From Nonlabens ponticola (GTDB lineage: Bacteria > Bacteroidota > Bacteroidia > Flavobacteriales > Flavobacteriaceae): a DNA stretch of 32,000 bases. Of the stretch, positions 13,689 through 23,076 are shown in pieces. How positions within the stretch are numbered: position 1 is the first letter of the stretch; each line of letters opens with the position of its first letter. Where the stretch lies: contig NZ_CP034549.1 of assembly GCF_003966335.1 (NCBI RefSeq), forward strand, positions 1,950,001 to 1,982,000. The letters are read 5' to 3'. The translations under genes were made by a program, and so were the position numbers. The notes beneath the pieces are model-generated. The model saw only the letters and a list, made by a program, of their open reading frames with translations, had not been told where the DNA came from and ran no database searches.

Positions 13689-14870
13689 TTATTTTTCACC
13701 TTTAGAAACAATTTTAATAGGTAGGCGCACGGTTATCGTCGTACCCTTTTTATTTCCAGTTATAAAAGTGATGTCACCTTCATGAAGCTCTGCAATCATT
13801 TTTGCGATATAAGTACCTAAACCAGTACCACGCTCCTTACCCGAAGTCACGTATTTACTAAAAAAGTTCTCGCGCACATCTTTAGGAATATTCCCTTTAT
13901 TAGTGATGTGGACTAAAAGCACATCATCAGTATTCAACTTGATTTTAATACGCTCCTTTTTAGGCGATGCCTCGATAGCATTGCTTAATAAGTTTTGAAA
14001 CAGGTGATCTAGATAAAATTTATCTGCTTTGATTCTCAGCGATGTTTCACCAGGGATCACTTCTTCGCCATCAAGCTTCATGGTAAGCTTAAGCTTCTTG
14101 CGATTGATAAGATCTTTATAATCCTTAGTCATCGTTTCTAAGGATTGGATAAGATCAAATTCTTCAATTTTTGGTTCATAATCACCACGCTCCATATCGG
14201 CATAATCCTTGGCACTGGTGAGCAATTGTAGCGTATCGATCCCTATGTGTTTGATGGTCTCGATCCATTTCATTTGCTTCTCATCCACATCAGTCTTTGC
14301 AAGAATATCAGCTACTGACACAATAGTTGCTAGACGATTGCGCATGTCATGTTCAGCAAGTCTATGTGCAAGATCTTGAGTTTCTAATTTGCGTTCTAGA
14401 ATTTCTATTGACGTCTCAAGTCGAGCAATGGTCCTGTGCAGCTCATCAGCCCTTACTACAAGAGTCATCTTTCTTATATCTTCCTCATCATTTTCTGTAT
14501 CGTATTCCTTGAGAAAGGCAGCGTTTGTGATGATCTCAAATTTCTCTTTGGACTTACCGTAAACAGTCCATCGACCAGTCAATTCATATTCATCCTTAAG
14601 AAATCTCTCATGCAGATTTACCAGTTGATCCTGGGATTCATCAGGCACCACCATGGTAAACGGGTTCCCTATAAGTTCCTCACGAGTATAACCATAGATA
14701 TCACAGTAGGTAGCATTAACATCAGTAAAATGACCGTTAGCATTAGTAACACAAATACCTATGGGCATGTGTTGAAAAACCTTGAAGGACAATTCATGAT
14801 CGTGTTCAAATAGACCCTTAATAGTATTGAGTCCTTGCTGGGCATTATCTTTCTGCTGAGAAACAGACAT
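13689..14870 (-). CDS. PAS domain-containing sensor histidine kinase
   Basis: 393-aa ORF. PAS-like N-terminus (...GICVTNANGHFTDVNATYCDIYGYTREELIGNPF...), H-box LAEHDMRNRLATI, HATPase motifs LLSNAIEAS and GTGLGTYIAK. No TM segment is evident. Confidence 0.85.
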   Translation of the reverse strand: MSVSQQKDNAQQGLNTIKGLFEHDHELSFKVFQHMPIGICVTNANGHFTDVNATYCDIYGYTREELIGNPFTMVVPDESQDQLVNLHERFLKDEYELTGRWTVYGKSKEKFEIITNAAFLKEYDTENDEEDIRKMTLVVRADELHRTIARLETSIEILERKLETQDLAHRLAEHDMRNRLATIVSVADILAKTDVDEKQMKWIETIKHIGIDTLQLLTSAKDYADMERGDYEPKIEEFDLIQSLETMTKDYKDLINRKKLKLTMKLDGEEVIPGETSLRIKADKFYLDHLFQNLLSNAIEASPKKERIKIKLNTDDVLLVHITNKGNIPKDVRENFFSKYVTSGKERGTGLGTYIAKMIAELHEGDITFITGNKKGTTITVRLPIKIVSKGEK

Positions 14871-14903
14871 AACCTTGTTTAAGTTTTGAGGTTAAAGTAT
14901 AAA

Positions 14904-14911
14904 CAAATTTA
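14904..14911 (-). promoter_or_regulatory. candidate -7 promoter box TAAATTTG
   Basis: Exact TAnnTTTG match on the minus strand, about 33 nt upstream of the PAS kinase ATG at 14870. Confidence 0.35.
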
Positions 14912-14969
14912 AAATATTTTTAATAATAAAAAGTTGTTTCCTACATTTTGAGGCGCATTCTTACAATTG

Positions 14970-14991
14970 TTACGCTTTCGCGAAAGCGTAA
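14970..14991. repeat. iterated palindrome copy 4 (core 14974..14987; perfect 22-bp palindrome TTACGCTTTCGCGAAAGCGTAA; intergenic)
   Basis: Read directly. It lies in the divergent region between the PAS kinase and the arg operon. Confidence 0.95.
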
Positions 14992-15037
14992 TCTCCACTA
15001 AAACCTAGCATTTAAAATTATCCTAAGTTTTTTTTCT

Positions 15038-15045
15038 TACATTTG
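15038..15045 (+). promoter_or_regulatory. candidate arg-operon -7 promoter box TACATTTG
   Basis: This is the only exact plus-strand TAnnTTTG match in the 430-nt region upstream of the arg cluster. It sits 3 nt before the ATG of mini-ORF 1. Confidence 0.35.
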
Positions 15046-15048
15046 ACT

Positions 15049-15102
15049 ATGCTTACAGTAGAATTATACACCAGAATTGAAAACCGCCGTCGCTGTCGCT
15101 AG
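15049..15102 (+). CDS. candidate arginine-rich leader peptide 1 (17 aa: MLTVELYTRIENRRRCR)
   Basis: Hand-translated mini-ORF ATG..TAG. The last five codons are CGC CGT CGC TGT CGC. It lies about 250 nt upstream of the first arg-cluster gene. Confidence 0.4.
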   Translation: MLTVELYTRIENRRRCR

Positions 15103-15146
15103 ACCTCGAGTGCATTGCCGTTTAATCAATTGTAAAATTTCTACCT

Positions 15147-15218
15147 ATGTTTTTCCTTCCATATTTATCGAGCAATAGTAATCCAAGAATGGTTATGTTG
15201 TTGCGCCGCCGCCGTTAA
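15147..15218 (+). CDS. candidate arginine-rich leader peptide 2 (23 aa: MFFLPYLSSNSNPRMVMLLRRRR; shorter forms from the ATG at 15189 or 15195)
   Basis: Hand-translated mini-ORF ending CGC CGC CGC CGT TAA, 83 nt upstream of the GNAT/arg operon ATG at 15302. Confidence 0.4.
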   Translation: MFFLPYLSSNSNPRMVMLLRRRR

Positions 15219-15301
15219 AGGCTGTTAATTTTTTACAGAACTTTAGGTGTGTCCAGTTCTCTTTTCGTTAAACATTTTACTCACTTATTAATTCTCTTAC
15301 A

Positions 15302-15925
15302 ATGAATATTGTAATTGCAAATGAATCGCATTTCAAATATGCTTATATTATATGCGAGACCATCAACAAATCAGCGGTCGAGCGTGACACTGGTATCGCA
15401 AAGCGTACCCCAGAATATATTACTACCAAGATGCAAAACGGGAATGCCGTCATCGCTCTTGATAATCAAAAGTTCACGGGTTTTTGCTACATAGAGCGAT
15501 GGGATCATGGCAAGTATGTAGCCAATTCTGGATTGATCGTACATCACGATTATCGTGGTAAAGGATATGCAAAACTGATCAAGAAAAAAATCTTTGAACT
15601 ATCACGCGAGAAATTCCCTGATGCCAAAATCTTTGGGATTACCACGGGCTTACCGGTCATGAAAATCAATTATGAGCTAGGATATCAACCCACTACATTT
15701 TCTGAGTTGACTACAGACGATGCATTTTGGAAAGGCTGTCAAACGTGCAAAAACTTTGATGTACTTACACGTACCAATAGAAAGATGTGCTTGTGCACTG
15801 GTATGATATACGATCCAGCTAGAAGCATTCCCAAACCAGAAAAAAAGGTCGTGACAAAATCCCTGCATGACCGTTTACAAAACATAAAGAAATCCATTCT
15901 CTTTAAAAAAGATCCTACCAAATGA
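15302..15925 (+). CDS. GNAT family N-acyltransferase, first gene of the arg cluster (candidate glutamate N-acyltransferase)
   Basis: 207-aa ORF with a GNAT core (...LIVHHDYRGKGYAKLIKKKIFELS...). Its stop overlaps the argG start (ATGA at 15922..15925). Confidence 0.8.
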   Translation: MNIVIANESHFKYAYIICETINKSAVERDTGIAKRTPEYITTKMQNGNAVIALDNQKFTGFCYIERWDHGKYVANSGLIVHHDYRGKGYAKLIKKKIFELSREKFPDAKIFGITTGLPVMKINYELGYQPTTFSELTTDDAFWKGCQTCKNFDVLTRTNRKMCLCTGMIYDPARSIPKPEKKVVTKSLHDRLQNIKKSILFKKDPTK

Positions 15926-20212: not shown

Positions 20213-20731
20213 TTGAAGATATTTGAAACAGATCGATTGGAAGTGAGAAGGCTTAAACAATCTGATGAATTGTATTTCACAGAATTGTTGACGAGTGCCG
20301 TTATCTTGGAAAAAATTCCTGTAAAACCAGCTACAGCAGAAATCGTAAAGGATCGATTTGAAACCTTCCAAAAAATGGAATTATCAGATTTAGGTTCAAC
20401 AAAATGTTTTTGTGCGATTGTGGAGAAAGGAAAGGATGAAGCGATAGGACTTGCATTATTTCTTATTGAGAATAATGAACAGGAACTGGGTTATCGATTT
20501 AGACCAGATTATTGGAGAAAAGGATATGGCACCGAGGTCGCAAAAGGTATGCTGGACTACTATTTTAATGTGTTAAGAGTGTCTAAGGTTATTGCAAATG
20601 CAAACGTTGAAAATCCGGGTTCCATAAGGATCTTGAGCAAATTGATGAATTTTGAAAAGGAGTTTTTCAATGTTGAATTGAATTGCACAGATCGCAGTTA
20701 CTCAATAACAAAAACCGAATGGAGTGATTAA
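20213..20731 (+). CDS. GNAT family N-acetyltransferase (RimJ/RimL-like)
   Basis: 172-aa ORF with a TTG start. (M)KIFETDRLEVRRL... and ...ELGYRFRPDYWRKGYGTEVAKGMLDYYF... are typical of Acetyltransf_3-type GNATs. It sits between argF' and argB. Confidence 0.8.
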   Translation: MKIFETDRLEVRRLKQSDELYFTELLTSAVILEKIPVKPATAEIVKDRFETFQKMELSDLGSTKCFCAIVEKGKDEAIGLALFLIENNEQELGYRFRPDYWRKGYGTEVAKGMLDYYFNVLRVSKVIANANVENPGSIRILSKLMNFEKEFFNVELNCTDRSYSITKTEWSD

Positions 20732-22670: not shown

Positions 22671-22944
22671 GTATTAAAGAAGAAAGATTAAAGACTTGAA
22701 GAATAGAGGATTAGAGGATTTGATGGAAAATAAGAGGGCTTTTTGAAATTGGCATTGGCAAGTCTGTCGTAAAAAATGAAGCTATCGTAGCGTTTAAAAG
22801 AAAATTTGTCGGTATGCAGTTAAGTGGTGATCAGTTTAAAACATATGATAGGAACGAAATGAATGTTCCAACGAAAGCGGTTTAATTTTCTTTAGCGCAG
22901 GAAGCGAAATTTTTAGACAGGTGTGCCACAGCCTAGACTTTTTG

Positions 22945-22973
22945 GTTACTTTTTCGGTAATGGAAAAAGTAAC
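22945..22973. other. perfect 10-bp stem hairpin GTTACTTTTT-cggtaatgg-AAAAAGTAAC in the argE-argH spacer
   Basis: Read directly. There is no T-run after it on the plus strand, so it is not a canonical terminator for argE. Confidence 0.5.
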
Positions 22974-23076
22974 AAACGAATAAATTGAATTAAATGCTTC
23001 GTCAAATAATTAATATGAAACGACAGAGCATTTCATCATATAACTCGAATTAAGGCAGTAAAGAATAAAAAACAAT

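Follow-up and report, generated by a model that had tools for sequence, protein, structure and literature searches.

A conserved, putatively arginine-sensing leader upstream of the arginine biosynthesis operon in Flavobacteriaceae

Leader region of the arg operon in Nonlabens ponticola

A 32,000-nucleotide (nt) stretch of the Nonlabens ponticola genome (NZ_CP034549.1, positions 1,950,001 to 1,982,000; the whole stretch is here called the window) contains a cluster of arginine biosynthesis (arg) genes. The cluster begins with a gene encoding a GNAT acetyltransferase, which is followed in order by argG, argC, argD, an acetylornithine-carbamoyltransferase-like gene, a second GNAT gene, argB, an argE-like gene, and argH. 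Upstream of the first gene is a spacer of 431 nt, bordered on its other side by a divergent histidine kinase gene, and two short open reading frames (ORFs), each ending in a run of arginine codons, lie within the spacer between a promoter box and the GNAT gene (Table 1). The original prediction, made from the sequence alone, had read the two ORFs as possible arginine-sensing leader peptides, and its coordinates for the box, ORF1, ORF2, the codons of the arginine runs, and an AGAACT/AGTTCT hairpin all proved exact when the sequence was read again. These features belong to a leader element of which some 190 distinct versions were found in related bacteria. It occurs in more than 20 marine genera of the Flavobacteriaceae as well as in metagenomes, where well over 100 contigs carry it.

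The promoter box, TACATTTG, had been described as the only exact −7 box on the plus strand, and it is indeed the sole exact TAnnTTTG on that strand in the 400 nt upstream of 15302. The −7 box of Flavobacterium psychrophilum spans positions −12 to −5 (PMC9723704). With this geometry and a spacing of 3 nt between box and ORF1 ATG, the start of transcription is predicted at 15049 or 15050, that is, at the ORF1 AUG itself. A transcript that includes this AUG would have a leaderless ORF1, and one that starts 1 nt downstream would leave ORF1 untranslated.

ORF1 and ORF2 are the only ATG-initiated ORFs of 10 to 60 amino acids in the six frames of the window that have at least four arginines among the last five residues. 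In block-shuffled sequence the mean number of such ORFs per 32 kb was 0.045 and the maximum was 1. The original prediction also saw no argR gene in the window, and no ArgR-type domain was found among its annotated ORFs or in 10 further ORFs that were scanned, the unscanned ORFs being mostly longer than 300 amino acids, with a few short ones nested in larger genes.

Table 1. Features of the arg operon leader in N. ponticola, in window coordinates
Feature	Position	Strand	Remarks
Sigma-A type −7 promoter box	15038..15045	+	TACATTTG; predicted transcription start about 15049-15050
ORF1	15049..15102	+	17 codons, MLTVELYTRIENRRRCR-stop; predicted leaderless; arginine run CGC CGT CGC TGT CGC at 15085-15099, then TAG
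P0, predicted imperfect hairpin	15075..15131	+	ORF1 arginine codons in 5′ arm, ORF1 stop near loop; −13.5 kcal/mol, z = −1.4, weak alone
ORF2	15147..15218	+	23 codons, MFFLPYLSSNSNPRMVMLLRRRR-stop; family-wide leader ORF; arginine run CGC CGC CGC CGT at 15204-15215, then TAA
Covariance-model match	15198..15262	+	ORF2 end, P1, linker, P2; 32.6 bits, E = 5.6e-7
P1 hairpin, degenerate in N. ponticola	15211..15222	+	GCC / GUUAAA / GGC, ORF2 stop in loop; aligned to P1 by covariance model, outer pairs mismatched
P1-P2 linker	15223..15236	+	U-rich, G-poor
P2 hairpin	15237..15260	+	AGAACU(UUA)GG-UGUGU-CCAGUUCU, loop motif AGGUGNGUCC; followed by CTTTTCGTT; −5.3 kcal/mol alone
Spacer before first gene	15261..15301	+	opens with CUUUUCGUU
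GNAT acetyltransferase gene, first of operon	15302..15925	+	3′ end overlaps argG start (15922); product 100% identical to a N. ponticola protein

Conservation of the leader and its surroundings

The leader was compared within the Flavobacteriaceae using two sets of loci. The genome set comprised the 80 closest GNAT loci of the family, taken from an alignment of GNAT homologs, plus three Nonlabens relatives (L081 to L083), for a total of 83, with genera that include Maribacter, Pricia, Arenibacter, Zobellia, Cellulophaga, Flagellimonas, Robiginitalea, and Salinimicrobium. The metagenome set was obtained by a scan with the pattern of the hairpin P2 alone, which gave at least 120 matches, and 120 loci were analyzed.

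In about 65 of the 80 genome loci, a TAnnTTTG box is followed by an ATG and an ORF of 25 to 30 codons that ends in R-R-R-P-stop, and the remaining loci are mostly variants with two arginines or a non-ATG start. This single-ORF form is exactly 27 codons long in 41 of 72 loci, and the ATG lies 7 to 8 nt after the box in 59 of 72, which, given the box geometry of F. psychrophilum, would place the AUG at about +4 and make the ORF nearly leaderless. Among the 120 metagenome loci, 107 have at least two arginines in the last six residues of the leader ORF and 108 have a GNAT homolog downstream; all are in an arg leader context where the sequence extends far enough. Conservation of the small ORFs and their arginine runs in relatives was the first test that the original prediction had set for itself, and the outcome was strongly positive.

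The leader ORF also has the character of coding sequence. Reading on from the promoter box, the first ATG encountered is in frame and gives an ORF that runs uninterrupted to the conserved stop in 121 of 129 distinct units, compared with a rough chance estimate of about 7%. Moreover, mean information at codon positions 1, 2, and 3 was 0.79, 0.94, and 0.61 bits, lowest at the third, and the codons of a conserved Phe at −8 and a conserved Pro at −6 vary synonymously. From these three properties we conclude that the leader is a real coding frame. Three to four consecutive arginine codons precede the Pro-stop in 122 of 147 distinct 3′ ends, and in the window the corresponding clusters are RRRCR (ORF1) and RRRR (ORF2). 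The codons are CGC or CGT (CGY) in 553 of 580 cases (95%), compared with only 29% of arginine codons in the GNAT genes of the same loci, in which AGA is commonest. The reading of the ORFs as leader peptides is thus supported both by the coding signature and by the clustering of arginine codons.

A two-ORF layout like that of the window occurs in at least four lineages: all four Nonlabens loci, Salinimicrobium, Autumnicola, and several metagenome lineages. The promoter box lies at the matching place in the other three Nonlabens loci, and ORF1 equivalents begin 4 nt after it (…PRMRRSC, …NFRRRCF, and …PRLRRRR); in Salinimicrobium, Autumnicola, and the metagenome lineages they begin 2 to 5 nt after it. 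With such short spacings, these upstream ORFs are predicted to be leaderless. The arginine run of ORF1 therefore recurs beyond N. ponticola, with upstream ORFs that have RRRCR, MRRSC, RRRCF, RRRR, LRRRFYNRRR, LRCRKTNR, or RLRFRSLLR near the end. In folds of other two-ORF loci, too, a hairpin forms around the stop codon with the ORF1 arginine codons in its 5′ arm, a similarity that has weak support from few sequences. ORF2 in this layout starts at an in-frame TTG; the ATG of the window's ORF2 (15147) aligns within a base with the TTG of L081 to L083, and Salinimicrobium has its TTG in the same kind of context. The ORF2 stop is 83 nt from the GNAT ATG, compared with 85 to 93 nt in most of the 80 relatives. 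We conclude that ORF2, rather than ORF1, is the family-wide unit. What every variant keeps is a stretch of CGY codons at the end of a short ORF, positioned either within the 5′ arm of a small hairpin or immediately ahead of it. The peptide sequence, the Pro-stop, where the stop falls, and the length of the ORF (17 to about 40 amino acids) are variable.

Some variants have peculiarities of their own. Leaders of 17 to 19 amino acids, some of which begin at a GTG placed 4 nt past the box, were seen in six metagenome loci (L138, L145, L151, L189, L170, and L195); these short forms have two arginine clusters (…ITPIRRIRRRRP, …LPIRRFRRRP) followed by a normal P1 and P2, their contigs look more GC-rich, and they probably come from another family-level lineage. 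L184 retains two arginines (…YRRPMRA) at the P1-proximal end of ORF2, and the upstream ORF1 of L098 and L099 retains arginine codons (…YRMRRFVR). Cysteine codons (UGY) occur in or beside the arginine runs, in the window (15094-15096) and in L024, L069, L081, L082, L092, and L182 (RRRCR, RRSC, RRRCF, LRCRK, PRCRRP, VCRRRP). As UGY is one C-to-U transition from CGY, these may be decayed arginine codons.

Two hairpins, P1 and P2, are the only structures conserved in consensus folds of either the full leader or the leader with about 90 nt of the GNAT gene. The family consensus of P1 is CGCCC-GUAA-GGGUG, in which the last arginine codon and the Pro codon form the 5′ arm and the stop codon lies in the loop, and variants such as CGCAC/GUGCG and CGCC-UUUA-GGCG retain the hairpin. 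A linker of 11 to 13 nt with 52% U and 5% G (152 units) separates P1 from P2, for which the family form is GGAAAU(A)GG-UGAGU-CCAUUUCC. The P2 loop motif AGGUGNGUCC is nearly invariant, 83 of 84 loci having it where expected, and five of the eight P2 pairs show compensatory changes, with 97% of P2 cells paired. Overall, six pairs have compensatory changes, 96% of all cells are paired, and a covariation score as high as that observed was reached in none of 500 shuffles. P2 ends about 45 nt from the GNAT start, and the 40 nt that follow it in relatives contain 4% G, compared with 12.7% in control 5′ regions, and 17% C, equal to the controls.

To search for the element, a covariance model (R1) was built from 74 loci that included neither the window nor any Nonlabens locus. 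R1 gave a single significant match in the 32 kb (runner-up, E = 1.9), running from the end of ORF2 through P2, and scored L081 to L083 at 44 to 55 bits. We conclude that ORF2 and the AGAACT/AGTTCT hairpin are a diverged member of the family. That hairpin had been described as weak and as followed by a T-rich tract; it is the conserved element P2 and not a terminator. A check by folding and covariation, as had been proposed, was positive for P2 within the family, whereas the whole leader of the window folded no better than shuffled sequence (z = +0.58).

P2 appears to be specific to the arg leader, as the scan with its pattern alone returned only arg leader contexts, each match lying between an arginine-ended ORF and a GNAT homolog wherever the sequence sufficed. 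For the same reason, and as neither the window nor the loci held a second copy, P2 was rejected as a general-purpose module. A role as a DNA operator was also rejected, as the stem covaries and uses G-U pairs and the central conserved part is not palindromic. Docking of the P1 loop as a GNRA tetraloop was rejected because the loop varies (GUAA, GUAG, GUUU, UUU, GUUAAA). A third ORF from an AUG or UUG at the base of P2 (MEIGESISA...) seemed open in frame, but stop density in the spacer is alike in the three frames (0.049, 0.053, and 0.058), and the ORF was rejected. No Rfam 15 family (Bacteroid-trp, T-box, the his, leu, and thr leaders, and riboswitches included) matched the window at gathering thresholds, and relaxing E to 10 gave only chance-level matches (E > 1) in the leaders of the window and of L018, a typical relative.

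Further observations concern the P2 loop. The sequence UAGGUGAGUCC (15245-15254 in the window and present in all loci) contains UAG and UGA in the two non-leader frames, such that frameshifting on the CGY run would bring the ribosome to a stop codon within P2. The minimum-energy fold of the window contains a pairing between the arginine run and the P2 loop (UCGCC with GGUGA), of which both partners are invariant. By eye, the variable base of the loop does not track the codon wobble base.

Other repeats and genes were noted around the leader. Single-ORF loci (L001 to L080) have two sequences in common 35 to 90 nt upstream of the −7 box, namely TTATGATTTAYGAAAT and an inverted repeat of the form (A)AAAA-N6-TTTTT with GTAAAAATT after it. 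These could mark the end or terminator of the neighboring gene, or they could be an operator through which a transcription factor controls the arg promoter. A 14-nt palindrome, GCTTTCGCGAAAGC, has eight exact copies in the window (6224, 8782, 10807, 14974, 18670, 22233, 25437, and 28559); 0.02 copies would be expected in 32 kb for a 16-mer with up to 2 mismatches. Six copies are intragenic, in two reading frames (AFAKA four times and LSRK twice), including copies in argD and the argE-like gene, and two are intergenic. One intergenic copy (14971-14992, TTACGCTTTCGCGAAAGCGTAA) precedes the arg promoter box by about 45 nt; the other three Nonlabens loci have it at the same position, and none of the remaining 80 genome loci has it. 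The palindrome looks like a genus-specific, DNA-level over-represented sequence of the highly-iterated-palindrome or uptake-sequence type. Within the cluster, the second GNAT gene (20213-20731, between the carbamoyltransferase gene and argB) encodes an Acetyltransf_3 protein unrelated to the first. A 400-nt gap before argH (22671-23076) contains an 11-bp hairpin (22945-22955 pairing with 22963-22973), and no small ORF with an arginine run was found in that gap.

Proposed sensing of arginine by translation and its alternatives

The analysis shows that the leader is conserved, has a coding signature and a codon bias, contains covarying hairpins, and is associated exclusively with the arg operon. 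Responsiveness to arginine, the direction of regulation, and the effector are what we infer from them. We propose, with a probability of roughly 60%, that the spacer at 15038-15301 is a transcribed arg operon leader with a Flavobacteriaceae-wide element that senses charged tRNA-Arg by way of translation. The short ORF would begin at, or within about 4 nt of, the 5′ end of the mRNA, and its terminal CGU/CGC run would fall within the 5′ arm of P1 or immediately precede it, P1 itself enclosing or just preceding the stop codon. CGU and CGC codons are all read by a single tRNA, tRNA-Arg(ICG). When arginine is low, the ribosome would stall on the CGY run, P1 would stay melted, and the leader would remain occupied. 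When arginine is ample, the ribosome would terminate and depart, and the RNA would fold as P1, the U-rich linker, and P2. The free, folded leader would then allow a repressive event that an occupied leader blocks, such that arginine shortage would induce the operon. In N. ponticola and several other lineages the sensor would be doubled, with ORF1, its own arginine run, and its hairpin placed ahead of ORF2. Sensing of tRNA-Arg(ICG) by stalling, rather than of free arginine by a peptide, is favored because the CGY run is constant, the peptide varies, and the codon bias is extreme.

How occupancy of the leader is converted into expression is more tentative. Sequestration of the GNAT start, as in translational attenuation of the erm or cat type, was rejected because no conserved pairing reaches the start region. 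Occupancy itself, rather than refolding, is the likely readout, as there is no conserved alternative pairing, canonical terminator, or start codon sequestration. The output we rank first, although we give it well short of an even chance, is that Rho terminates transcription prematurely within the G-poor spacer, where P2 would serve to pause or anchor the process. The tna and speF leaders have a similar layout. Ranked second, and rather unlikely, is endonucleolytic decay starting from the U-rich linker, modeled on the action of RNase G on the Salmonella speF leader. A weak intrinsic terminator is the third-ranked candidate.

Sensing might instead reside in the peptide, such that a nascent chain of the form ...F-x-P-x-R-R-R-P binds free L-arginine in the exit tunnel and blocks release at Pro-UAA, with stalling at high arginine lowering expression. 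The single-ORF form is what would be expected: the C-terminal CGC-CCG-UAA(G) is invariant, synonymous variation leaves Phe −8, Pro −6, and His/Tyr6-Ile7 intact, and the modal length is 27 amino acids. TnaC also ends in Arg-Pro-stop, and Pro-stop is a poor context for release. We nonetheless consider a peptide sensor improbable. The peptide diverges in the two-ORF lineages, the window included (RRRR-stop, RRRL-stop, RRPLGVL-stop, and RRTFVRA-stop), and ORF1 peptides have only their arginine codons in common. Moreover, the hairpin and the arginine run persist across changes in Pro and in where the stop falls, leader length varies as widely as described above, and sensing in the tunnel would not require 95% CGY where AGA is the commonest arginine codon nearby. 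Classical attenuation would retain the stalled ribosome and have it prevent an intrinsic terminator formed by P1 and the U-rich linker or, in N. ponticola, by P2 and CUUUUCGUU. Other flavobacterial leader peptides have been described as transcription attenuators, and the printed hisG leader ends in a strong hairpin (PMC9723704). The arginine codons do form the P1 5′ arm, and the linker, U-rich overall, reaches 64% U in its last 6 nt. A U run also follows the ORF1 hairpin in L081 and L082, and the window, with 6 U in the 9 nt after P2, has the most of 180 units. Only 4% of those units have at least 5 U there, however, P1 is just 5 bp, and U is most concentrated at the 3′ end of the linker, beside P2, and not directly after P1. 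The original prediction had recognized no convincing terminator/antiterminator pair, and none is conserved: a scan of 14600-15600 found no terminator, and the consensus folds contain no antiterminator or third pairing. A terminating ribosome would presumably cover P1 as a stalled one does, in which case the two-element design would discriminate poorly. Classical attenuation is therefore very unlikely.

P1 and P2 could also serve mainly as the site of a trans-acting factor, be it an RNA-binding regulator, a small RNA, the 3′ end of 16S rRNA, or arginine, with the ORF being secondary. The essentially invariant P2 loop on a covarying stem would be explained in this way, as would the survival of P2 in L098, L099, and L106, in which the ORF2 arginine run is reduced to one residue or lost. 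AGGUGA of the loop would be complementary to UCACCU at the 3′ end of 16S rRNA. The ORF and its arginine run are equally tightly conserved, however, and a coding signature and codon bias would be superfluous for a pure RNA site. P2 was never seen apart from the leader and arg context in the loci or the metagenome scan, the element is small with a variable linker sequence, and it matches no Rfam family. We assign a low probability to such a site as the main function, and it is compatible with sensing through translation, as P2 may be the docking site of the effector. That both ORFs arose by chance in a GC-rich patch of non-regulatory spacer would fit the fold of the window's leader, which is no better than that of shuffles, and the probability is negligible given the conservation, covariation, model match, open first ATG, uniqueness in the window, and CGY bias taken together.

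Several features weigh against sensing of charged tRNA-Arg by translation. In the single-ORF form, Phe −8, Pro −6, CGC-CCG-UAA, and the N-terminal His/Tyr-Ile are conserved at the amino acid level, which hints at a role for the nascent chain. L098, L099, and L106 keep P1 and P2 with one or no arginine near P1 in ORF2 (SRPMRA…, …FFQRP). The proposal does not account for the near-invariant P2 loop. In N. ponticola itself, P1 has only 3 bp, P2 is weak, and the leader folds no better than its shuffles, and the ORF1 AUG coincides with the predicted start site and may or may not be on the mRNA. The effector has no strong signature; the spacer is G-poor with no enrichment of C, and P1 would partly mask the C-rich arginine run from Rho. 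The invariant P2 loop and the peptide conservation of the single-ORF form leave room for a dedicated binding factor or a nascent-chain contribution.

Related systems and significance

Leader peptides have been described in F. psychrophilum for the ilv, his, aromatic, and trp operons (PMC9723704). Like the classical attenuators (hisL, trpL, leuL, thrL, pheL, Bacteroid-trp, and F. psychrophilum his and ilv), the arg leader has a leader ORF with a run of the pathway's own codons that lie in the 5′ arm of a hairpin. Unlike them, it has no conserved U-tract terminator or antiterminator, its arginine run is at the end of an almost leaderless ORF, and a second hairpin has an invariant loop. Staphylococcus aureus rbfL senses arginine through slowly decoded arginine codons of a leader peptide but differs in using rare AGA/AGG codons, occluding a downstream ribosome-binding site, repressing under starvation, and targeting a biofilm regulator (PMC13009471). 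In Salmonella orf34, pausing at two consecutive arginine codons controls decay by RNase G, and translation of orf34 blocks Rho (PMC6386406). The speF leader of Salmonella and Escherichia coli (orf34, SpeFL), in which pausing on consecutive arginine codons at low arginine alters the fate of the mRNA, is the best analogy for an output read from occupancy. It is proteobacterial and Shine-Dalgarno dependent, however, and it controls a polyamine gene with ornithine, sensed through the nascent chain, as the main signal; an informal comparison revealed no resemblance in sequence or structure.

In tnaC, a peptide of about 24 amino acids ending in Arg-Pro-stop precedes a long untranslated spacer, and whether Rho acts depends on a ribosome retained where the ORF ends. 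The arg leader has a similar layout. TnaC senses free tryptophan and induces a catabolic operon, whereas the arg leader would take the pathway's own codons as its signal and must work by induction when arginine is short. The fungal arginine attenuator peptide, encoded by the arg-2/CPA1 upstream ORF, also governs arginine biosynthesis by terminal stalling but is eukaryotic, blocks scanning ribosomes, and senses free arginine with a conserved peptide that has no run of arginine codons. T-box riboswitches with an arginine specifier sense uncharged tRNA-Arg to control arg-related genes. They differ in binding the tRNA directly, with no translation involved.

Arginine biosynthesis is a textbook case of control by the ArgR repressor, and to our knowledge no arg operon is known to be controlled by a leader peptide. 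Literature searches found no description of this element, nor of an arginine leader for any arg operon in Bacteroidota or elsewhere. We class the element as an amino-acid-sensing leader of known type that is new in being for arginine, in its near-leaderless ORF, and in its non-classical output. Less probably, by some way, it represents a distinct type of regulator suited to bacteria that initiate without Shine-Dalgarno sequences, either a near-leaderless CGY-run ORF, the occupancy of which is read via P2 by Rho, an RNase, or an RNA-binding protein, or an R-R-R-P-stop chain that senses free arginine.

Covariance model R1 can be used at once to annotate the element in genomes. Bacteroidota do not rely on Shine-Dalgarno-led initiation, and the leader, with a sensor ORF at the mRNA 5′ end and no classical terminator, offers a compact and testable system for translation-coupled regulation in the phylum. 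If the reader of leader occupancy is Rho, an RNase, or an RNA-binding protein, it would be a factor not yet linked to leader peptides in Bacteroidota, and if the R-R-R-P-stop chain senses free arginine, bacteria would have a first counterpart to the fungal arginine attenuator peptide. If the proposal is true, the leader would be a major and so far unnoticed control point for the synthesis of a nitrogen-rich amino acid in abundant heterotrophs of the ocean.

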